Source: Promethearchaeota archaeon
GTDB lineage: Archaea; Asgardarchaeota; Lokiarchaeia; Sigyniarchaeales; SOKP01
Assembly: GCA_048939015.1 (NCBI GenBank)
Contig: JBHLPW010000016.1
Span: 33,652 to 80,739 of the forward strand
Reading direction: 5' to 3'
DNA: 47,088 nucleotides
Shown: positions 7,567 through 32,116 of the stretch, piece after piece
How the letters are laid out: every line of letters starts with the position of its first letter
Position numbering within the stretch: position 1 is the stretch's first letter
Program-made: the position numbers and the translations under genes
The notes under the pieces: generated by a model
The model's input: only the letters and a program-made list of their open reading frames with translations
What the model was told of the DNA's origin: nothing
The model's database searches: none

Positions 7567-10440
7567 TTATTCAATGACTTCCATTTGTTTGTCATGATGT
7601 TCTGGAATCGGTTGAGCTCCACAACTAGCCCCCATCCAGCAGACTAATTGATCTCCTTCTTTATGCATTGCTTGTCCGCAATGCATTGGAAGTTCTTGTT
7701 CTAAACCACATTCCACACATTTTAATTTTCCCATTTTTTTATCCTCTTTTTTTATATTTATATTTTCATTTAATTGATCAACTTTTTCGTCTTCTACAGG
7801 ATTTCTCATCATTAATTTAGGGTTCATAGCATTATAATTTTTGAATTTCTCAGGGTCATGTTTAAAATGAAGTTCACAATTTGGATTGCAAAAATGATAA
7901 ATTTTACTTTTGTATTCATATTCTATTGCTCGTCTAGGATCAATTTCCATGCCGCATACCGGATCTATTACTTTTTCTTGAGAAATTAATAAACGTTCTT
8001 CTTCAATTTGCTGAGGTGTTTTGGGTTCATACCTTTTTAAAAACAAGGCATTTGTTACTACTGAGACCGAACTTGAAGCCATAAATACAGCAGCCAAATA
8101 AGGTGGTAAAAAGAATCCAGTTGCATAAAATAAAACGCCCGCAGCTATAGGTATGCCTATAAGATTATAAATAAAAGCCCAGAATAGATTCGTAATCATT
8201 TTCTTGTATGTTTTTTTTGATAAATTAATAGCTGCAACAACATTTCGAAGATCACCTCTCATTAGAACTATATCTGCTGTTTCAATAGCAATATCAGTTC
8301 CAGAACCAATTGCAATTCCCACGTCTGCTTGTGCTAAAGCAGGCGCATCATTAATACCATCTCCGACCATTCCAACTATTTTGTGATCATTTGAATGCTG
8401 CAAATTTTGAATCGTAAGCGCTTTCTCATTAGGTAAAACTTCTGCAAGAATATTTTCTTCTTTGATATTCAATTGATTGCCAATATTATGAGCTGTTTGT
8501 CTATTATCTCCCGTAATCATATAGATCTCCAATCCTTTTTCTTTTAATTTTTCTAAAGCATATAATGCTTGATCTTTAATCTTGTCTGCTACGCCAATGA
8601 TTCCGCTGATATTGCTTTCAATACTGATTAAAAGAGCTGTTATACCTTGTTGTTGAACTTGATTAAATTTATTAAAGTAGCCATTTATTTTGATATTGTT
8701 CTCATTCATTAATTTTTCATTTCCTATAAGTATATTTTTGTTTTTAATTAGCGCTTTTATGCCTTTACCTGGAAAAGCATTGAATTCACTGGGTTCTTCA
8801 AGTGTCAATCCTCTCTGATTAGCTTCTTCAATTATAGCTAGCCCAAGAGGATGCTCAGATCCCATTTCTGCACTTCCTGCATAATACAGAAGTTCATTTT
8901 CATCAATCCCTTGACCTCTTACATTTTTTTCTGAAATGATCATAGATACTTTAGGTTTTCCAACTGTTAATGTTCCAGTTTTATCAAATACTATTGTGTT
9001 AATAGTATTTATTGCTTCTAATGAATCTCCACCTTTCAAAAGGATCCCATTTTCTGCACCTTTACCAGTTCCAACCATAACAGCTGTAGGGATTGCTAAA
9101 CCCAAAGCACATGGACATGATATGACCACAATAGAAGTAAAAACTAATAATGATAATTCCAATCCAATTTGAGCAATCAAATACCAATATAAAAATGCAC
9201 TTATTGCTATTATAACGACAATAGGTACGAAATAATTACTAACTTTATCTGCTAACCTTTGTTTTGCAGCTTTCTTACTTTGTGCTTCCTTCACAAAATC
9301 TATTATTTGAAATAAAAGTGTTTCCTTACCAACTTTTTCAGTTATTATATGTATTAACCCTGTTTGATTGACTGTCGCACCTATTACTTCACTGTCAATT
9401 TCTTTCTTTACGTATCTACTTTCACCTGTTATCATAGATTCATCAATTTTTGTCTTACCTTTGATTACTTTGCCATCCACAGGTACTTTTTCACCAGGTC
9501 TTACAATTAATATATCTCCTACTTCAATTTCCTCAATGGGGATTTCAATTTCTTTCCCACCTTTTAATAGTGTGGCTGTTTTTGGTTGTAAACCAATTAA
9601 TTTTTTAATTGCTTCTGATGTCTGTCCTTTAGTTTTATGTTCAAAATATTTCCCTATTAGCAAAAAGGTTAATATCATACTCATCGCTTCATAAAAGGTC
9701 TTACCTTCAATCAAAAAGGTTGTTAATATTGAATAAACTAAAGCGGTAGTAGTTCCTAGTGCAACTAGGACATCCATGTTGGTAGATTTATTTCTTAATG
9801 ATTTGTACGCTCCTATTAAAAAGAAGGAACCGGCAATCATATAATTAACCATTGCGAGGATAAACAATAAAATATTTCTTATAAATGATGCTTCTACAAA
9901 CCAACTTATTGGTGTAATTATTAATGTGAATATAAAAGATATTATTAAAATTCGAAGTCGATATCTCATTTCTTTTTTGTGTTTTTCGATCTCCTTATCC
10001 ATTACCCCAGCTGTCTTCTCAATTGTGTAACCTTGTTTTTTAATATGGGCAAAAATTTTATTTTCATCTAATAACAATTCATTAAATTCAATAAATAATT
10101 TACTTGCCTTGAAATTGCCTCTTACATCGTAAATTCCGTTTATCTCTTTTACTTTCTTTACAAGGTCACCAAATTCTTCTTCATTTAGGGTATCTATTAT
10201 TTTAAGATCTATTTTAGCTAATGAAGATTTATAACCTAAATCATAAATCGCTTTATTAAAATTAGTATAATTAGTAATTTTTGGATTGTATTCCACGGTT
10301 GCCTCCTCGTTAGCAAAATTTACTACTGAGTTATTTACTCCATCCAAACCTTTTAATTTAGTTTCAATTTTATAAGCACAGTTTGCACACGTCATTCCAC
10401 TAAGCTTTATTTTAACTTTTTCAACAGATTCTGATTCTAT
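7567..10440 (-). CDS. copA: Cu+-exporting P1B-1 ATPase with an N-terminal HMA domain, a degenerate second HMA, a C-terminal YHS domain and an extra Cys/His-rich domain
   Basis: Motifs GMTCANC, TGES, CPC, DKTGT, SEHPL, GDGINDAP, YN, MASSS and DPVCGM..FCNPNC (YHS). Start extended from 10395 to the ATA at 10440 to complete the HMA beta1 strand. Confidence 0.95.
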   Translation of the reverse strand: MESESVEKVKIKLSGMTCANCAYKIETKLKGLDGVNNSVVNFANEEATVEYNPKITNYTNFNKAIYDLGYKSSLAKIDLKIIDTLNEEEFGDLVKKVKEINGIYDVRGNFKASKLFIEFNELLLDENKIFAHIKKQGYTIEKTAGVMDKEIEKHKKEMRYRLRILIISFIFTLIITPISWFVEASFIRNILLFILAMVNYMIAGSFFLIGAYKSLRNKSTNMDVLVALGTTTALVYSILTTFLIEGKTFYEAMSMILTFLLIGKYFEHKTKGQTSEAIKKLIGLQPKTATLLKGGKEIEIPIEEIEVGDILIVRPGEKVPVDGKVIKGKTKIDESMITGESRYVKKEIDSEVIGATVNQTGLIHIITEKVGKETLLFQIIDFVKEAQSKKAAKQRLADKVSNYFVPIVVIIAISAFLYWYLIAQIGLELSLLVFTSIVVISCPCALGLAIPTAVMVGTGKGAENGILLKGGDSLEAINTINTIVFDKTGTLTVGKPKVSMIISEKNVRGQGIDENELLYYAGSAEMGSEHPLGLAIIEEANQRGLTLEEPSEFNAFPGKGIKALIKNKNILIGNEKLMNENNIKINGYFNKFNQVQQQGITALLISIESNISGIIGVADKIKDQALYALEKLKEKGLEIYMITGDNRQTAHNIGNQLNIKEENILAEVLPNEKALTIQNLQHSNDHKIVGMVGDGINDAPALAQADVGIAIGSGTDIAIETADIVLMRGDLRNVVAAINLSKKTYKKMITNLFWAFIYNLIGIPIAAGVLFYATGFFLPPYLAAVFMASSSVSVVTNALFLKRYEPKTPQQIEEERLLISQEKVIDPVCGMEIDPRRAIEYEYKSKIYHFCNPNCELHFKHDPEKFKNYNAMNPKLMMRNPVEDEKVDQLNENINIKKEDKKMGKLKCVECGLEQELPMHCGQAMHKEGDQLVCWMGASCGAQPIPEHHDKQMEVIE

Positions 10441-10444
10441 TTAG

Positions 10445-10451
10445 ATCACCT
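10445..10451 (-). promoter_or_regulatory. Shine-Dalgarno site AGGTGAT of copA
   Basis: 4 nt upstream of the in-frame ATA at 10440. Confidence 0.7.
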
Positions 10452-10644
10452 TTAGCTCTAATGAATAAGTACAATGTTCAGTTATTATAGATTCGGCTTA
10501 TATTTTGAAAACATTTTGAATTTTTTAGTTCTATATTAAATTCAATTGAGCTCAAATTGTTATCAGAACTAAAATTTAAGTAGAATTAAAATTTAAAAAA
10601 TTAGGATGTAATGATTTGGGCATAATAACTCTGGTTATCAGAAA

Positions 10645-11025
10645 TCATATCTTTTTCTCACGATAAACTCTAATTGCCTCTTTCAATCCATCAGCAACCA
10701 TTAAACTACAATGAATTTTAGGTTCAGGTAATCCATCTAAAGCTTTAACGATTTCCATCTTCGTAATTTTTTCTGCTTCATTTAAAGATTTACCTTTAGC
10801 CATCTCTGTAGCAATACTTGAAGAAGCTATAGCAGCGGCGCAACCAAAAGTCTGGAAAGTTATTTCATCTATTATTTTCTCGCCGCCTTTTTCTTTTACT
10901 TTGATATACACATTGATATAGTCACCGCACTCTAGAGAGCCGGCTTCTCCAATTGCATCAGCATCTTTCATTTCACCCATATTTCGCGGATTTTTGAAGT
11001 GTTCCATAACTTTTTCCGAGTATAT
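10645..11025 (-). CDS. iscU: IscU/NifU-N type Fe-S scaffold (MisU-like)
   Basis: HFKNPRN, ECGD, FQTFGCAAAIASSS and LPEPKIHCS give three conserved Cys. Start extended to the ATA at 11025, giving (M)YSEKVMEHF. Confidence 0.93.
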   Translation of the reverse strand: MYSEKVMEHFKNPRNMGEMKDADAIGEAGSLECGDYINVYIKVKEKGGEKIIDEITFQTFGCAAAIASSSIATEMAKGKSLNEAEKITKMEIVKALDGLPEPKIHCSLMVADGLKEAIRVYREKKI

Positions 11026-11030
11026 GCGTA

Positions 11031-11036
11031 ATCACC
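11031..11036 (-). promoter_or_regulatory. Shine-Dalgarno site GGTGAT of iscU
   Basis: 5 nt upstream of the in-frame ATA at 11025. Confidence 0.7.
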
Positions 11037-11115
11037 ATACCGAATGTGTAATTTTATGAAAAATAATATATTATTACCTTAAAGTTTTATGGGTTTTATC
11101 TTATAACGTAAATCA

Positions 11116-13407
11116 TTAATTCAATATTTGAAGTTTTCTTTTAATAGGTAAAGATACTTTTTCCACACCTAAGCCTTCTACAAACTCTACTACTTCTGTT
11201 AACTTTTTTGCAGATTGATGGAAAAAACAGACCTGTTTTGGTTCAAGCGCTTTAATCATTTCACGTAATTGATTTTTATCAGCATGAAGTTTTATTTTTA
11301 AATGAGGAGCGAATTTATTTAATAACAATGCTCGGAATGGCATTTTCCAAGTTTCGGAAAATTCGATTTCTTCAGCACCTTCTACAAGATCCAAACCAGG
11401 TTGTTCATGAATCGATCCTGCAAGGAACACAAAATTATGAGGATTTCGACCTATAACATTGATTATATTTCTTATCAGCCCATATGAAAGATCTGGAGGA
11501 TGAGATATGATTATATTATTTCTTTTTCGAAGGAAATTTAGATTCGTGTTATCAAACCATCTGAATTTTATACTATTAAACGGATTTGCTTTATCTCTAA
11601 TTAATCTTGAAATTGGACCATAAATGTATTCATAGCGATGGTTTATAACTTGTATATTTTTACGTACCATCATATCTACATATATATTAGGACGTTTCTT
11701 AAATCCACGTCTTAATTGAAGTTTTCTAAAATATCTCCAAAAGATTAACATAAAACTAATAGCTAAACTTGATGGGTCTGCACCAATTAAAGAACTGTCG
11801 CCATATTCTGCCTTTTGCTCTAAGAATAATATTAAACTATGAAACTGATCAGAAATATTTCCATAATCTTCTTGCGCAGCAGTTCCATCTATAAGTAAAT
11901 AATCTATAGGGCGAGATAATTGTTCCAAAAATCGTCTTGTACCTGCAAATGGCGTAATATCAATATAAGTATAATCACCTGTATATAAGAACCTAAAATT
12001 GTTTACTTTTGCTAACATCATTAAAGCACCGGGCATATGGCCCGCATGGAAAAAAGAGAGAAAACAATTCTTTTCTTTGAAGTCGATTTTTGTACCATTT
12101 TCAACATATATTACATTTTTGATTATATTTCGATACTCATCTTCTTCAATTTCTTTGTGAGTTTCTTGTTTTAAAAAACCTGAATCTCTGAGAAGAAATA
12201 AATCTAAAGTAATTCTAGAACTTAAAATCGGCACGTCTGGATATAATTTAATTAATTCTTTTAACCCTGAAATATGATCATAATGACTATGTGATATAAA
12301 TATGGCATCAATCTTTGGATTTTTTGGAATACTTTCCAGAATTACATTATCTTGATCATCTTCTGTAATATTTCTTCTATTTTTTTCTTGTTCCAAAAGG
12401 TATTGTGGTAAATTTAGAATATAATCTTCAATATGCTGTATATCCCCCTCTATTTCATTTTCTTCATCTTTTTCTGAAAGACCGCAATCCAATAATATAT
12501 TGAGATTCCCTAATCCTAAAATATGACAATTATGGTTTGGTTTAAGGACAATAGGATATATTGTTACTCTAATTTCATTATCTTTCGAATCATTCGTAAG
12601 AGATACTTCAGAAAAATAATCGACATCAAATTTGTTTTCTATTTTATCAATTGCGATGCAAAGTTCACTTTCTCCTACAGGAACTCCAGTGATATAAAAG
12701 TACCATCCATATTTTTTTACTAAATTCTCTAGATTTTCATACATTTCATCACCCACTAAAGACTTAAGAACTATTACCTTATCCTTTTGATAATAGATTA
12801 TTTTTCGAATGCTTTTTTTTTCCTCAATTGGAACGAGTTTATCCTTGAGGAAGAAATTATCAAGAAATTCTTTTATGGGAGTCTGAGGTAATTCATTTGA
12901 TTTAATTATTTTTAGATAATGATTATATTCTTTAGTTTTGTACAATGGTCTCATATTTTCTTTTTGTTTTAAAGAAATAGGACCATCTTCAAAATAATAT
13001 TCCTCTCTACTTATGGTCTTTTCTACTTTTGATACCTCTTTTTTTTTAGGTTTTTTCTTTTTAGATTGCTTTATTGGTTTTTCTATGAAAAAGAACCATC
13101 CATAATCTTTTATTAATCTATCTCGATTTACTATAATTTCTTTACCATGATCGGTAATAATTATAAGGATTCTAGCTTTTTGACAATAAATAATCTTAGA
13201 AATGGAGTTTTTTGTTTTATCTGAAATACTTTTATTATCGTTAAAAAAATGATTTACTACATCTTTTATATCTTTTTGAGGAATTTTTTTGCTTTCCATG
13301 AAGTTGAGTTTACTTTTGTAAGTATTAATTTTATATGAAGAGCTTATATTTTCTTTATTTTCAAGTAAAACAGTTTTATCTGAAAATTTATATTCCTCAT
13401 TAATCAT
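11116..13407 (-). CDS. MBL-fold beta-CASP ribonuclease (aCPSF/CPSF73-like) with a duplicated N-terminal domain
   Basis: MBL motifs LLDCG, SHSHYDH, AGHMPG and YTGD, plus beta-CASP motifs IDGT, LHAD and FFHQ (His at motif C is typical of RNA-acting members). Confidence 0.88.
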   Translation of the reverse strand: MINEEYKFSDKTVLLENKENISSSYKINTYKSKLNFMESKKIPQKDIKDVVNHFFNDNKSISDKTKNSISKIIYCQKARILIIITDHGKEIIVNRDRLIKDYGWFFFIEKPIKQSKKKKPKKKEVSKVEKTISREEYYFEDGPISLKQKENMRPLYKTKEYNHYLKIIKSNELPQTPIKEFLDNFFLKDKLVPIEEKKSIRKIIYYQKDKVIVLKSLVGDEMYENLENLVKKYGWYFYITGVPVGESELCIAIDKIENKFDVDYFSEVSLTNDSKDNEIRVTIYPIVLKPNHNCHILGLGNLNILLDCGLSEKDEENEIEGDIQHIEDYILNLPQYLLEQEKNRRNITEDDQDNVILESIPKNPKIDAIFISHSHYDHISGLKELIKLYPDVPILSSRITLDLFLLRDSGFLKQETHKEIEEDEYRNIIKNVIYVENGTKIDFKEKNCFLSFFHAGHMPGALMMLAKVNNFRFLYTGDYTYIDITPFAGTRRFLEQLSRPIDYLLIDGTAAQEDYGNISDQFHSLILFLEQKAEYGDSSLIGADPSSLAISFMLIFWRYFRKLQLRRGFKKRPNIYVDMMVRKNIQVINHRYEYIYGPISRLIRDKANPFNSIKFRWFDNTNLNFLRKRNNIIISHPPDLSYGLIRNIINVIGRNPHNFVFLAGSIHEQPGLDLVEGAEEIEFSETWKMPFRALLLNKFAPHLKIKLHADKNQLREMIKALEPKQVCFFHQSAKKLTEVVEFVEGLGVEKVSLPIKRKLQILN
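12691..13398 (-). repeat. Tandem duplication of a ~105-aa domain (aa 4-108 and 135-239) in the beta-CASP protein
   Basis: Gapless alignment at an offset of 131 aa, ~40/105 identities by hand count (EEY.F.D, KEN, PQ..IK, SI.KIIY.QK, K.YGW.F.I), with a Lys-rich linker. Confidence 0.9.
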
Positions 13408-13510
13408 TAAATAGAAGAAAACACCTTCTACAAAAATCCTTTCGAATTTTTAATTTTAAATATTATTCGACTTTAGTGCTCTTCTTGAGGTGGAACATCA
13501 AATAAAGATA

Positions 13511-14701
13511 CTATGACTTTTTTATTGGAGAAATCTTTCTTAATCTTTCAATTACCCCAGGTAGTTTCTCTAAAAAGTAATCTACATCTTCTTTAGTTGT
13601 AAAGCGTCCTAAAGAGACTCTCAAAGTACCATGAGCTTCCTTAGATTTTAAACCAATAGCTAATAATACATGTGATGGATCGAGTGATTTTGAAGAGCAA
13701 GCAGAACCAGTAGAGGTAGCAATTCCTTCCGTATCTAAATCTAACACAATCGATTCTCCCTCAACATATTTGAATCCTAAATTAACATTATTTGGAAGTC
13801 TTTGAGTAGGATGTCCATTCAAAAATGAATCTTCAATATTTTCTGTTACCCATTTTATAATCTTATCTCTTAATTTTATCTGTCTTTGAGATTCAACTTC
13901 CATTTCTTCTTTAGCTAGTTCTACTGCTTTAGCAAAACCAGCAATCCCTGGTACATTTACAGTACTTGGTCTCATATCCCTTTCATGACCTCCACCATAC
14001 ATCAGTGGTTCAATATACTTTCCCCACCCCTCTCTTTCTCCTTTATTCCGTATGTATATCAAACCTACACCTTTGGGACCATAAATTTTATGTGCTGAGG
14101 CAGATAACAAATCAATATTCATATCATCTACATCTATTGGAACTTTTCCGAATGCCTGAACAGCATCGGTATGAAAGATAACATCATTTTTCTTTGCTAT
14201 AGCTCCAATCTCTTTTATCGGTTCAATTGTACCAATTTCGTTATTAGCAAACATTATACTAATTAGAATTGTTTTATTTGTTATCGAATTCTCTAAATCT
14301 TTTGTATTAATTAGTCCGTATTTATCAACAGGTAAAAATGTAAGTTCAAATCCTCTCTTTTCTAATTCTTTATAAGGATTTTCTACCGCATGATGTTCTA
14401 TTGATGTTGTAATTATATGATTTCCTCTTTCCTTATTTTTAAAAGCTACACCAAAAATAGCAGTATTATCAGCTTCTGTCCCTGAAGAAGTAAAATAAAT
14501 TTCATCTCTTTTCGCATTTATTAGTGAAGCTATCGTTTCACGTGATTTTAACAATACTTGCCCGGCTTTTTGACCTATTGAATGTAGACTGGAGGAATTT
14601 CCATAAGTTTCCTTAAAATGTTTGTTAATTTCTTCAATAACTCTAGGATCCATGGGAGTAGTTGCAGCATTGTCAAGGTATATATATTTAGAATCACTCA
14701 T
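13511..14701 (-). CDS. iscS: Group I cysteine desulfurase (IscS/NifS, MisS-like)
   Basis: YLDNAATT, HTDAVQ, SAHKIYGPKG (PLP Lys) and STGSACSS (catalytic Cys). Confidence 0.96.
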   Translation of the reverse strand: MSDSKYIYLDNAATTPMDPRVIEEINKHFKETYGNSSSLHSIGQKAGQVLLKSRETIASLINAKRDEIYFTSSGTEADNTAIFGVAFKNKERGNHIITTSIEHHAVENPYKELEKRGFELTFLPVDKYGLINTKDLENSITNKTILISIMFANNEIGTIEPIKEIGAIAKKNDVIFHTDAVQAFGKVPIDVDDMNIDLLSASAHKIYGPKGVGLIYIRNKGEREGWGKYIEPLMYGGGHERDMRPSTVNVPGIAGFAKAVELAKEEMEVESQRQIKLRDKIIKWVTENIEDSFLNGHPTQRLPNNVNLGFKYVEGESIVLDLDTEGIATSTGSACSSKSLDPSHVLLAIGLKSKEAHGTLRVSLGRFTTKEDVDYFLEKLPGVIERLRKISPIKKS

Positions 14702-14854
14702 ATTTAGTCTTAAGCCTAAAATATTTGGTTAATCTAATTAAATAATTAGAATGATTAAATTTTTAATTATTTTCATTAGTTTTTATAAACAAAGTTAATT
14801 TTTCATACATTAAGAATTATTTTAACTTCTTAAAACATAATTTAAAATATTATA

Positions 14855-15367
14855 ATGAATGATAAAAAATCCAATAATGAAACTATTGATCTAATTGTAG
14901 AACATGAACTCCTTGGAGTTACTCCTGAAATGATTGATTGGTGGTGGGATCATATTGATAATTCAAAACGCTATAGGTTATGGCATCCTGAAGACCATAA
15001 ATCATTTAAGTGGGAAGTCTCTCCTGAAGATGTGAATGGTCATGTAGGAGCAATTCAACGCGTAGTTGAAACAATTGAAGGAAGACCAACAACGTTAAGA
15101 ATTCGATGGGAAGATCCTAATTCAATACCCATAAAAGCGGAGTTTAAGCATAAAAATGCTGGATCTGTTTTAAATGATAAAGATAAACCGATGAGTTGGG
15201 TTTTACATGAATATTACTCGATTCCTGATGGGACTTTTTTACGATCAACATTTCGTTTACCAGCAATAATCCCAAATTCTTTCATAGAGCATTTACGAAA
15301 ACATAATAAAGAAGAAATAGGATATTTTACTGTATTTTTGCCAAAATTATATGAACAAGGAAGGTGA
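14855..15367 (+). CDS. DAPG hydrolase (PhlG)-like, Bet v1-fold metal-dependent hydrolase
   Basis: GVTPEMIDWWW and RYRLWHPEDH motifs, a conserved Glu (VVETIEG), and a C-terminal HNKEE metal-ligand pattern. Confidence 0.75.
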   Translation: MNDKKSNNETIDLIVEHELLGVTPEMIDWWWDHIDNSKRYRLWHPEDHKSFKWEVSPEDVNGHVGAIQRVVETIEGRPTTLRIRWEDPNSIPIKAEFKHKNAGSVLNDKDKPMSWVLHEYYSIPDGTFLRSTFRLPAIIPNSFIEHLRKHNKEEIGYFTVFLPKLYEQGR

Positions 15368-15377
15368 CTGTAGCAAT

Positions 15378-15929
15378 ATGAAACTTATGTGGGGTATGAC
15401 TGGAACGGGTTATGTTCTTCAAGAATCCATTGATTTAATGAAAGAATTACAAGAGGATTTCAACGTAGATTTAACTGTTATTCTATCAAAAGAAGGAGCT
15501 GCTGTGGTTAAGTGGTATAAAAAGTGGTTAGCACTTACTGATACTGTTAAAAAGGTAAAAATTGAAAAAACTCCTAATATACCTTTTTATGCAGGACCTC
15601 TACAACTTGGAAACTATGATTTATTTCTTGCTTGCCCAGTTTCTGCGAATAGTGTTGCTAAAATTGTTTATGGTATTGCAGATACTTTAATAACTAATTG
15701 TGTGGCTCAAGCAATTAAAGGTGGTCAAACTGTTTATATCTTTCCATCAGATCAAGATACTGAGCCAATAGTTACTTCTCGACCTGATGGTTCGCCCCTT
15801 ATTCTAAAAATAAGAGATATTGAAATAGAAAATATACAAAAATTAAAACATATGGAAGGAATTTTTGTTATAGAGAAGTTTGAAGACATCAGAAATATAA
15901 TTTTAAAGAAAATTGAAGAATATGGTTAA
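15378..15929 (+). CDS. afpA: Archaeal flavoprotein AfpA family (HFCD-like FMN-binding; related to DmrX)
   Basis: MKLMWGMTGTG, PVSANSVAKIVYGIADTLITNCVAQAIKG and PSDQ. ATG at 15378 follows the SD AGGTGA. Confidence 0.75.
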   Translation: MKLMWGMTGTGYVLQESIDLMKELQEDFNVDLTVILSKEGAAVVKWYKKWLALTDTVKKVKIEKTPNIPFYAGPLQLGNYDLFLACPVSANSVAKIVYGIADTLITNCVAQAIKGGQTVYIFPSDQDTEPIVTSRPDGSPLILKIRDIEIENIQKLKHMEGIFVIEKFEDIRNIILKKIEEYG

Positions 15930-15933
15930 AAAT

Positions 15934-16374
15934 TTAGGCTTCAAACTTTACAGGTTGAATTGCTCCTTCCGGGCAGAGAATAGAGCACTTTAAACAACCT
16001 TGACACTTTGCAATTTCTCTATACTTGTACCTGATTCCTTCTTCTTCCTTCCCTACTTTTTTTACAAAATCTTTATAAAAAAGATTTTTAGGACAGAATT
16101 TACCTTCTTCTTCAAGGCATTTCTCACACATTGAACATAATTCATGGTCAATCTTGATACTTACAATTTGATCTGGAGCTGTTATCGAGGTTACTTCAAT
16201 CGCATTCCTGGGACAGACTTGAACACAATTCAAACAAGCTTTGCATCGCATGTAATCCACCTTTCTAATTCCATGTTCAAAATAGATAGCTTTAGCCTTA
16301 CATGCTCGTAAGCACCGCTCACATTTTAGACATAATTCTTGATCAATTTGAACAGGTATAAATTTCTCTTTAAT
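15934..16374 (-). CDS. Polyferredoxin with four [4Fe-4S] motifs (~146 aa)
   Basis: CLKCERCLRAC (upstream of the tracked start), CKACLNCVQVCP, CSMCEKC..FCP and CQGCLKCSILCP. The frame is open to the TAA at 16381-16383; proposed ATT start at 16374. Confidence 0.88.
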   Translation of the reverse strand: MKEKFIPVQIDQELCLKCERCLRACKAKAIYFEHGIRKVDYMRCKACLNCVQVCPRNAIEVTSITAPDQIVSIKIDHELCSMCEKCLEEEGKFCPKNLFYKDFVKKVGKEEEGIRYKYREIAKCQGCLKCSILCPEGAIQPVKFEA

Positions 16375-16531
16375 AGCAAATTACCTCAAAAAATATTGTT
16401 TTAAAGCTATAAGTCTAATTACTGAAAATCTGAGGATATTATAAATGTAATTTTTATAGAATATCAAATAAGACTTATATTATTCTTAGAAAAAGTAAAT
16501 AAAAAGATAGAATTTAGAATAAATTATTATC

Positions 16532-17323
16532 TTATTGAAAGTATCCAGTATATTCTTTTCCAGTACCAGGTAATTGTTGCTGTTGTTGGTATTGTTGTGC
16601 TTTCTGGGCGAGCTCCAGCATCTTAGCTTTAATTTCCTTTCCTTGTTCAATAAGAGGTGCTGTGTCAATGGTTAAATTATACATTTTATTCAAAACCTCT
16701 AAAATACTGGCTGCACCTTCTGGAGTAGGAATTTCTAATACAGGAGTAAACAATGCAAAAGCATTCAACCTATTGGTTAGTGCTTCATTTAATACGGTAG
16801 CTTCTGGCCCAACAATAATTCCTTTTTCTACTTTTGCAATACCGAATTTTTCAAGATGTTCCATCATCACCTCTTCAGCAGCATAATAGACTGGATATTC
16901 ATCGATGATTCCTCTCTGAGGAATACCTTGAAAGATAATTATTTCCTTTGCTTTAACATCTTCTGAAAGAGCCCAATTACAAATTGTCTTACTTAAGTCA
17001 TTATAAGCCGTTGGTATCTGAAAAGGAACTTCACAAATACCAATAATTAAATTATACTTAGTGGAATAGAGCAATCTGAATGGATGTTTTAAAACACCCG
17101 CATAAAATACTGAGATAGGCGGGAGATATTCAGAAGTAATGAATCCAATCTCTTTAACATCTGAAAGTTGTTCAATTAGAGTATTAGCAACAATTGGGCC
17201 TATTAACCCAATCCCCGCAAAACCTAGAATGAATGTAGCGCCTTGTTTAATTTCAATTGAAAGATCATCAATAACCACCGTGCTTTTTTTCCCTTTTTCA
17301 CAAATGTACTCTTTTTTTACCAT
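16532..17323 (-). CDS. PAC2-family proteasome assembly chaperone (PbaA/PbaB-like)
   Basis: GFAGIGLIGPI, LPPISV..G..HPFRL, GIIVGP and PTPEGAA. ATG at 17323 follows the SD GGTGA. C-terminus ..GYFQ. Confidence 0.88.
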   Translation of the reverse strand: MVKKEYICEKGKKSTVVIDDLSIEIKQGATFILGFAGIGLIGPIVANTLIEQLSDVKEIGFITSEYLPPISVFYAGVLKHPFRLLYSTKYNLIIGICEVPFQIPTAYNDLSKTICNWALSEDVKAKEIIIFQGIPQRGIIDEYPVYYAAEEVMMEHLEKFGIAKVEKGIIVGPEATVLNEALTNRLNAFALFTPVLEIPTPEGAASILEVLNKMYNLTIDTAPLIEQGKEIKAKMLELAQKAQQYQQQQQLPGTGKEYTGYFQ

Positions 17324-31144: not shown

Positions 31145-32116
31145 TTAAAAGTAGAGATTTGAAGGTTCTAGGATATTTGGATAATAAGGACGAAGGAAAT
31201 TCCTTACTGAAAAACAAAGATGGCACTTGTCTGCATATCCTTTCCGAGGTTTATATCCTTTTTCAATCGCTATTTCAAGAAGATTTTGAGGTCCTCCTTT
31301 GGTAACTAACTTGCCTATTATTGGATGTTTTCTATAATTAAATTCACGTAAGATCTCAGACAATGATTTGTCTTTAGCATTACCTATACAAATTCCATTG
31401 CATAATTGATGAAAAACCCATCCATTAGGATCAACCATAAACATCGGAACCTTGAAAATAAGACACCTTTCTGAGGGGATTGCATCCATTGAGAAATAAT
31501 CAGTAAGATTATTTACTGCTCGTCCTTTTACTTGTAACTCACTGTTTATTATCTGACAAAACTCTAGTTCTTTGGAAATTGAACATGCAAATTTTTCATT
31601 CTGTTCATTAATAGAATTATTTATATTACTAAGTCCAAGATTTTGAGTTATTGAATAAATAGTTTCAATTCCAGCTTCGTAAGCAGCTTTCATAGCTCGT
31701 TTCACTACTTCAAGTGGAACAAATTCTTGATGAAAAGTGTCAACGCTAAAGCCAATGGTATTTAAACCTGCTTCCTTTAGCTTTTGGGTATAATGCTTAG
31801 CAGTTGAGTCATTTTTTCCCCAAAACCCATTGGTTGGCAATCCTATTATTGGTATACCATATCTTTTTACTTCTTTAATAAAGCTAATTAGTAAATCAAA
31901 ATGAAGTAGAGGCTCTCCTCCAAAAAAGCCAACTTCATCAACAATATAATTTTGTGTAACTTCCTCCAGATATTTTTTTACATCCTGTAATTCCATTAAC
32001 TTATTGTCTTGATTTGGAGACCCTGGAATTGCACAATGCTTGCATTCGTTAGTGCATTTATAGGATATAAGAAACGTGAGAAAATTTATTCTTTTTTTAT
32101 TTTGTTCAAGGCTCAT
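31145..32116 (-). CDS. Radical SAM enzyme with a C-terminal auxiliary Cys cluster (twitch/SPASM-like)
   Basis: CTNECKHC, GGEP, TNG and SVD, then C..VDPNG..LC...IGN and KCHLC. Confidence 0.88.
   Translation of the reverse strand: MSLEQNKKRINFLTFLISYKCTNECKHCAIPGSPNQDNKLMELQDVKKYLEEVTQNYIVDEVGFFGGEPLLHFDLLISFIKEVKRYGIPIIGLPTNGFWGKNDSTAKHYTQKLKEAGLNTIGFSVDTFHQEFVPLEVVKRAMKAAYEAGIETIYSITQNLGLSNINNSINEQNEKFACSISKELEFCQIINSELQVKGRAVNNLTDYFSMDAIPSERCLIFKVPMFMVDPNGWVFHQLCNGICIGNAKDKSLSEILREFNYRKHPIIGKLVTKGGPQNLLEIAIEKGYKPRKGYADKCHLCFSVRNFLRPYYPNILEPSNLYF

Follow-up and report, generated by a model that had tools for sequence, protein, structure and literature searches.

The DNA considered here is a stretch of 47,088 nucleotides from a Promethearchaeota archaeon, an uncultured Asgard archaeon of the Loki type (contig JBHLPW010000016.1, positions 33,652 to 80,739; hereafter the window), and it carries on its minus strand a copA-type gene for a P1B copper/heavy-metal ATPase, a gene for the IscU/NifU-N scaffold protein and a gene for a polyferredoxin with several 4Fe-4S motifs, each of which appears to begin with ATA or ATT (Table 1). 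The window belongs to a 4.86-Mb metagenome-assembled genome (MAG) of 125 contigs with about 30% G+C (G000; the window is G000:C85:33652-80739). Comparison with other genes of this genome and with related genomes indicates that the three codons are very probably genuine starts. They would be ordinary cases of a habit that the whole lineage shares and that is not reserved for metal genes.

An earlier note, prepared from the DNA letters of the window, had claimed that coding sequence extends upstream of the first canonical codon in copA, iscU and the polyferredoxin gene, and the in-frame stops, the open reading frames (ORFs) and Pfam matches all agree with this claim. In each of these genes, conserved domain sequence is present upstream of any ATG, GTG or TTG, and an in-frame stop codon is located zero to two codons ahead of the ATA or ATT. 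As the note had also stated, these codons are preceded by strong Shine-Dalgarno (SD) sequences; they are positioned 5-6 nt past the place equivalent to the GGTGA end in the SD consensus. The copA leader reads AGGTGATC-TAA-ATA-GAA, and residues 11-71 of CopA, when numbered from this ATA, match positions 2-62 of the Pfam HMA profile; the first ATG (10395) encodes the Met within the metal site GMTCxxC. The leader of iscU reads GGTGAT-TACGC-ATA-TAC-TCG-GAA-AAA-GTT-ATG, in which the first ATG corresponds to residue 7, and position 2 of the NifU_N profile falls on residue 2 of an IscU protein numbered from ATA. For the polyferredoxin gene, whose leader reads GAGGTAA-TTTGCT-ATT-AAA, the first canonical codon is a GTG at 16260 (residue 39) that lies downstream of the first CxxCxxCxxxC motif, and the Fer4_6 match covers residues 8-30 as counted from ATT. 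The same type of SD is found ahead of ordinary ATG starts in the window, namely in front of PAC2 (TGGTGA, 5 nt, and ATG at 17323) and afpA (AGGTGA before ATG), and ATA or ATT is present at three of the six SD-led starts in the window.

Two side observations concern these proteins and genes. In addition to its HMA match, CopA is matched by the Pfam families E1-E2_ATPase, Hydrolase and YHS; it has only one HMA domain, at the N-terminus, and its C-terminal part consists of the YHS domain (residues 824-868) followed by a Cys/His-rich tail (window 7567-8100, minus strand). The afpA-like flavoprotein gene (plus strand, window 15351-15380) offers two candidate ATG codons: a start at 15351 would create a 17-nt overlap with the upstream gene, and the ATG at 15378 is located 10 nt past an AGGTGA whose TGA ends the upstream gene, with the Pfam domain beginning there.

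Table 1. Genes and putative initiation signals in the part of the window that carries copA, iscU and the polyferredoxin gene.
Feature	Window positions	Strand	Remarks
copA-type P1B copper/heavy-metal ATPase	7567-10440	-	957 codons from ATA; stop-to-stop ORF
copA putative start codon ATA	10438-10440	-	TAA directly upstream (10443-10441)
copA SD AGGTGATC	10444-10451	-	GGTGA end to ATA, 5 nt
iscU/NifU-N scaffold gene	10645-11025	-	126 codons from ATA; Pfam NifU_N, residues 2-125 = profile 2-124
iscU putative start codon ATA	11023-11025	-	in-frame TGA two codons ahead; residue 7 is the first canonical codon
iscU SD GGTGAT	11031-11036	-	GGTGA end to ATA, 6 nt; in-frame TGA within the SD
Metallo-beta-lactamase-fold protein, 763 aa, between iscS and iscU	11116-13407	-	ATG start; Pfam Lactamase_B
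Cysteine desulfurase (IscS/NifS type), isc cluster	13511-14701	-	ordinary ATG start; Pfam Aminotran_5, residues 7-376
Polyferredoxin, several 4Fe-4S motifs	15934-16374	-	146 codons from ATT; Pfam Fer4 families from residue 8
Polyferredoxin putative start codon ATT	16372-16374	-	TAA (16383-16381) two codons upstream
Polyferredoxin SD GAGGT(AA)	16383-16387	-	aligned spacing, 6 nt

A genome-wide scan for SD-led ATA, ATT and ATC codons, which the earlier note had proposed, revealed a strong enrichment of ATA and ATT. In G000, every match to AGGAGGTGATC of 6 nt or longer was taken for which an in-frame codon is present 5-7 nt past the aligned GGTGA end, an ORF of 100 codons or more follows and an in-frame stop is no more than 8 codons upstream; the scan covers SD-led genes, and genes without an SD make up the majority in this genome. 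It yielded 279 strong-SD sites, and a canonical ATG, GTG or TTG was present at a spacing of 2-10 in 190 of them. Among the 89 sites that lack a canonical start, ATA was found 26 times, ATT 25 times and ATC four times, and no other codon occurred more than four times. ATA and ATT hence occupy 51 of 89 sites, a share that has to be compared with an expectation of 7.5% (derived from SD-like sites inside ORFs) to about 10% (derived from downstream control codons; binomial p = 4e-28 against 10%). This enrichment is specific to frame and spacing, and the other near-cognate codons CTG, ACG, AAG and AGG were not enriched at the SD-defined position in the G000 scan. That only four cases of ATC were recovered agrees with the rarity of this codon in a genome with 30% G+C.

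When all codons at a spacing of 5-7 nt from a strong SD are counted, ATG (70) is followed by TTG (29), ATA (26), ATT (25), GTG (10) and ATC (4), so that ATA and ATT together account for about 20% of the strong-SD genes in G000. If SDs of at least 5 nt are admitted, ATA or ATT is found at 116 of the 354 sites that have no canonical start, against an expectation of 8.6%, which amounts to an excess of about 86 genes. Most likely, then, about 85-115 genes of G000 start at an ATA or ATT that is positioned about six bases behind a ribosome-binding site, as judged from these sequence patterns. The candidates are spread over about 40 contigs, and the first canonical codon lies a median of 15 and at most 87 codons behind the ATA or ATT; long distances of this kind are expected if the canonical codons are merely internal ones.

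The ATA and ATT starts depend on the type of the SD and on its spacing. In 33 of 51 cases the spacing is exactly 6 nt, while the ATG starts are distributed as 28, 19 and 23 over spacings of 5, 6 and 7 nt (p = 2e-4). A GGTG core is present in the SD of 46 of the 51 ATA/ATT starts but in only 32 of the 70 ATG starts (Fisher p = 3e-7), and TTG and GTG starts are intermediate in this respect. A same-strand ORF is located at most 30 nt upstream in 16 of the 51 ATA/ATT cases versus 53 of the 70 SD-led ATG starts (p = 2e-6). The SD-led ATG starts are mostly operon-internal, and the SD-led ATA/ATT starts mostly follow longer gaps. We considered re-initiation or translational coupling as a cause of the unusual starts and rejected it, since ATA and ATT are less often near an upstream same-strand ORF than ATG is.

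Pfam scans were carried out for 50 of the 53 strong-SD ATA/ATT/ATC candidates located outside the window. In at least 19 of them a canonical start would truncate a Pfam domain that begins between residues 2 and 10. Such matches were obtained for ribosomal protein L19e (residues 2-53, profile positions 1-52, first canonical codon 8), a Gtr1/RagA GTPase (residues 2-190, profile 1-195, codon 65), a response regulator (residues 4-115, profile 1-111, codon 35), an SDR protein (adh_short; residues 6-198, profile 1-193, codon 8), PanE/ApbA (residues 3-136, profile 1-135, codon 76), Usp (residues 2-151, profile 2-141, codon 15), Rpp14/Pop5 (residues 8-105, profile 1-102, codon 40), GFO/IDH/MocA (residues 7-116, profile 1-113, codon 30) and OYE (Oxidored_FMN; residues 4-258, profile 2-262, codon 7). 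A canonical start would strip the P-loop from one RagA-like GTPase, whose first canonical codon is residue 65, and would deprive a UBC-type E2 of about 70 N-terminal residues, about 45 of which belong to the UQ_con domain. The functions of the candidates are diverse and comprise, among others, ribosomal proteins, the proteasome (alpha subunit), GTPases, response regulators, transporters and dehydrogenases. Four candidates are of the eukaryote-signature type: two Gtr1/RagA-like GTPases, the UBC-type E2 and a Roadblock/LC7 protein (G000 C32:95328-96233, C76:18948-19880, C17:33836-34342 and C117:43093-43911).

The expectation of the earlier note that standard gene callers would truncate such proteins is supported by the public members of the polyferredoxin family. 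Their predicted starts are found at many places: some forms comprise 146 residues, corresponding to the ATT position, others have 149-156 residues, and about 20 of the 120 listed clusters are only 125-137 residues long and begin inside the first cysteine motif. An exact look-up of the full and the truncated forms of IscU and CopA in a protein collection found none of them present and was uninformative.

Conservation of the unusual codons in relatives, which the earlier note had named as a check, was found for iscU and the polyferredoxin gene, and in a few genomes only for copA. The iscU start codon in 21 copies from the same genus is ATT in 11, ATA in seven (18 of 21 for the two together), and GTT, GTA and ATG in one each; a GGTG-type SD core is present ahead of it in nearly all copies. 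The codons for Y-S-E-K-V behind the start vary synonymously among the same-genus copies, which indicates that this stretch is translated. Nearer Asgard relatives have ATT, ATA, ATC, GTT or TTG at the start position. Homologues elsewhere read MYSEKVM. In the 80 wider loci, the non-Asgard homologues possess ATG or another canonical start at or beside this position, with one exception from the Thermoplasmatota. In this exception (locus L123, from a MAG of an unrelated archaeal lineage), ATC follows GGGGGTGAG, and near-cognate starts of iscU thus occur now and then outside the Asgard archaea as well.

The polyferredoxin gene has ATT or ATA after (G/A)AGGTAA in about 20 of 28 genomes of the genus, and the remainder use an upstream TTG; ATG was never found. 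For copA, ATA is present in only three of the 28 genomes (G000, G017 and G002), most of the others have ATG at or near this place, and one reads ATT-GTG. In rpl19e, ATA is restricted to G000 and its closest relative G020, where it follows the longer SD GGGAGGTGA; ATG is found in 25 of 29 genomes (25 relatives), mostly after shorter SD matches. The patterns of copA and rpl19e indicate that single genes flip between ATG and ATA/ATT inside the genus. In orthologs of iscU, the ferredoxin gene and copA, the stretch that runs from the near-cognate codon to the first canonical one is constrained at the protein level, as seen from synonymous changes and conserved residues.

The same pipeline was applied to two further Asgard genomes, for which the strong-SD figures give ATA/ATT among sites without a canonical start behind an SD of at least 6 nt. 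In G032, a member of the same order but of another family (31% G+C; 1.2 Mb scanned), 2 of 16 strong-SD sites carried these codons, which is not significant, and when SDs of 5 nt or more were admitted, 15 of 87 did so versus 7.5% expected (p = 0.002). In G083, from another Asgard family (41.5% G+C; 0.8 Mb scanned), we found 4 of 38 versus 3.5% (p = 0.04) with strong SDs and 10 of 116 versus 5.1% (p = 0.07) with SDs of at least 5 nt. A few of the G032 sites look genuine (e.g., GAGGTGAT-N6-ATA). Orthologs of the G000 candidates in the scanned stretches of the two genomes mostly start with ATG (proteasome alpha and others), and the E2 gene has ATT in G032. The habit is thus most pronounced in the genus of G000; it is weak in the sister family and marginal at best in G083.

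The window also contains a number of neighbouring genes. In the 763-residue protein encoded between iscS and iscU, the metallo-beta-lactamase-fold domain is fused to a pair of similar repeats at the N-terminus, each about 100 residues long and with ...KYGW.F.I at its end; such a protein is an unusual member of an isc cluster. In the interval between the desulfurase and the polyferredoxin gene, two plus-strand genes are present, one for a DAPG-hydrolase-like protein and one for a flavoprotein.

Inspection of aIF1 and of the anti-SD, also suggested in the earlier note, showed the factor to be ATT-started and divergent and yielded for the anti-SD a sequence from the sister family only. A single initiator tRNA was found in G000 (C27, minus strand, about 31180-31393); its anticodon is CAU, and it is canonical in having the loop CUCAUAA, three G-C anticodon-stem pairs and A1:U72. 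Two introns interrupt the gene for this tRNA, the first behind position 38 and the second within the T loop, and CCA is encoded. With the anticodon stem-loop and the 5' half as queries, no second or variant initiator tRNA was found in this MAG, which is incomplete, so that absence is not shown; only 18-20 tRNAs were detected in the whole of it with ARAGORN and Rfam. The 16S rRNA 3' end was taken from the sister-family genome G032 because that of G000 was not found; it reads ...GGATCACCTCCTTTA, and its tail GGATCACCTCC is complementary to the copA SD.

The sole aIF1/SUI1 gene of G000 (C27:8575-8895; locus L161 1420-1743) is devoid of ATG, GTG and TTG before the CPIC...CIC zinc knuckle. The only start codon available is an ATT (L161 1426) that is common to six of seven genomes of the same family. 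In other Asgard families, aIF1 mostly has ATG, and ATA after AGGAGG is found in two families. The aIF1 proteins of the family of G000 deviate from other Asgard aIF1 proteins at the otherwise conserved EQR and IIEG positions. In published work (PMC6237735), aIF1 is reported to have a destabilising effect on initiation complexes that contain non-AUG mRNA. The divergent aIF1 of this family may be the permissive element.

We propose that a GGTGA-type SD would pair with the 3' end of 16S rRNA and place the codon about 6 nt downstream in the P site, where AUA or AUU would admit the normal initiator tRNA (CAU) although just the first two bases pair. Start-codon proofreading is thus very probably relaxed at the third base in the genus of G000, and strong A+T mutation pressure (30% G+C) would turn ATG into ATA or ATT where a strong and well-spaced SD compensates for the change. 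Met-tRNAi would be used at AUA and AUU, and initiation at these codons would presumably be efficient enough for housekeeping genes. A tentative and rather unlikely extension of this proposal is that the lowered stringency is global and tunable, with the divergent, AUU-started aIF1 setting a threshold that would co-regulate about 100 SD-led AUA/AUU genes. The AUA/AUU set, about 2% of the proteome, would then include ribosomal proteins, the proteasome, small GTPases and Fe-S assembly; if true, such a tunable stringency would be an archaeal counterpart, and a possible forerunner, of the near-cognate control exerted by eIF1/eIF5 in eukaryotes.

The earlier note had left two readings side by side: SD-dependent AUA/AUU initiation throughout the genome, or a translational control specific to metal-homeostasis genes. 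The first of these is upheld by the conservation among orthologs, the enrichment in the genome and the controls in two other Asgard genomes. The second, according to which selection has favoured weak ATA/ATT starts in genes for metal homeostasis and Fe-S proteins so that the synthesis of the products is throttled or regulated in the manner of the AUU of bacterial infC, derives its appeal from the presence of three such genes inside 6 kb and from the non-ATG start that iscU has throughout the genus and also in Asgard relatives further away; moreover, an ATT-started fidelity factor, aIF1, in the family of G000 makes a factor-dependent control of weak starts conceivable. We nevertheless regard it as improbable. 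Only about three of the 50 Pfam-scanned candidates have to do with metals or Fe-S clusters (a P-type ATPase, an aldehyde:ferredoxin oxidoreductase and RACo), so that the functional enrichment for which the note had asked shows no metal bias; copA starts with ATG in most genomes of the genus, and for L19e the closest genome pair is the only one in which ATA has replaced ATG. Nor is the group of three genes a special feature, since the non-canonical starts showed no significant clustering when labels were shuffled among SD-led starts (p = 0.1-0.4).

A changed decoding, be it ATA read as Met, readthrough of the TGA in GGTGA, a second initiator tRNA or A-to-I editing of AUA, would fit the in-frame TGA found within the SD at many sites and is reminiscent of mitochondria, which pair AUA as Met with AUA/AUU starts. 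Such an explanation is very improbable: internal ATA codons swap with ATT and ATC at Ile positions in orthologs, ATT is as frequent a start as ATA and can be explained neither by editing nor by a reassignment of AUA, the upstream stop of copA and of the ferredoxin gene is TAA and not TGA, profile positions 1-2 of the Pfam matches fall on the ATA or ATT, and the one initiator-like tRNA found, with only few tRNAs detected in the incomplete MAG, has the anticodon CAU. Least credible of all is an artefact or gene decay, that is, G-to-A or G-to-T errors, pseudogenes, or a real start downstream that leaves the upstream stretch untranslated. The genome is a MAG with an estimated contamination of 6.5%, and one G-to-A change suffices to make ATA out of ATG; however, 20-30 genomes that were assembled independently show these codons again, a G-to-A error cannot produce ATT, and synonymous changes accompany conserved residues behind the ATA or ATT. 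Downstream starts would remove the GMTCxxC ligands, the first 4Fe-4S motif, a P-loop or a Rossmann beta-1 strand, and the specificity of the enrichment for frame and spacing likewise speaks against such a reading.

Several observations weigh against a general relaxation of start-codon proofreading in the genus as the full account. The non-ATG start of iscU has been kept across nearly the whole genus (20 of 21 copies) and beyond it, a retention that could reflect gene-specific selection, and two copies of iscU carry GTT or GTA, which match CAU more poorly than our model expects. Some of the ATA/ATT starts may have been selected as weak starts and not just tolerated, and gene-specific selection may add to the pattern at iscU and aIF1, both of which almost never have ATG in the genus. 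The borderline excess in G083 (p = 0.04) suggests that the habit may not be wholly absent outside the order. Finally, no 16S rRNA gene was found in G000, nor in the same-genus genome G006, and it is by its sequence divergence that aIF1 is singled out as the possible permissive element.

In bacteria, starts of the AUU/AUA type behind an SD are present in the E. coli infC (encoding IF3) and pcnB genes, and ATT, ATC and ATA are alternative initiators in NCBI translation table 11. Bacterial AUU/AUA starts are confined to isolated genes, account for well under 1% of starts and are autoregulatory. The G000 starts resemble those of infC and pcnB in that a near-cognate codon with a third-base mismatch lies at the usual distance from an SD, and the initiator tRNA is its presumed reader. 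A further likeness to infC, a weak AUU start on the gene of the fidelity factor itself, is absent for copA, iscU and the ferredoxin gene and present for aIF1, although the factor is here the eIF1-like aIF1 and not IF3. Unlike the bacterial cases, about 20% of the strong-SD genes of G000 are affected, housekeeping genes included, and the codons swap with ATG among close relatives. Animal mitochondria have no SD, read AUA as Met and possess one tRNA-Met with a modified C34. They share with G000 an A+T-rich genome in which the same third-base variants (AUA/AUU/AUC) serve routinely as starts; in G000, however, ATA stays Ile internally, and the starts depend on an SD with a GGTG core at 6 nt.

As for eukaryotes, aIF1 is the homologue of eIF1, which together with eIF5 governs stringency, and the weak start of aIF1 parallels the poor start context of eIF1. 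Eukaryotic near-cognate initiation mostly uses CUG, GUG or ACG, involves scanning and has low efficiency, whereas the G000 genes would use AUA or AUU positioned by an SD. For the free-living bacterium Deinococcus deserti, mapping of N-termini is reported to have revealed non-canonical starts that annotation had overlooked (PMC2830850). In contrast to that proteogenomic work, our conclusions are drawn from comparative genomics, and the unusual starts are apparently far more frequent among the SD-led genes of G000.

The choice of the start codon is generally regarded as tightly policed, with AUA and AUU starts as rare curiosities outside organelles. No report on such starts in Asgard archaea was found in the searchable literature; reviews on Lokiarchaea note only that SDs are rare. 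The proteomes of Asgard archaea are mined for eukaryote-like proteins, and several of the affected genes, including those for Roadblock and proteasome subunits, are of this kind; a re-annotation that permits ATA and ATT behind a GGTG-type SD would correct inconsistent or truncated starts in databases. If our reading is true, a free-living archaeal lineage in which about one-fifth of the SD-led genes start at AUA or AUU would show that the stringency of start-codon selection can be reset in evolution, and it would be a natural setting in which to examine how start selection is divided among aIF1/eIF1-type factors, the SD helix and the P site, in the group of archaea that is closest to the eukaryotes.

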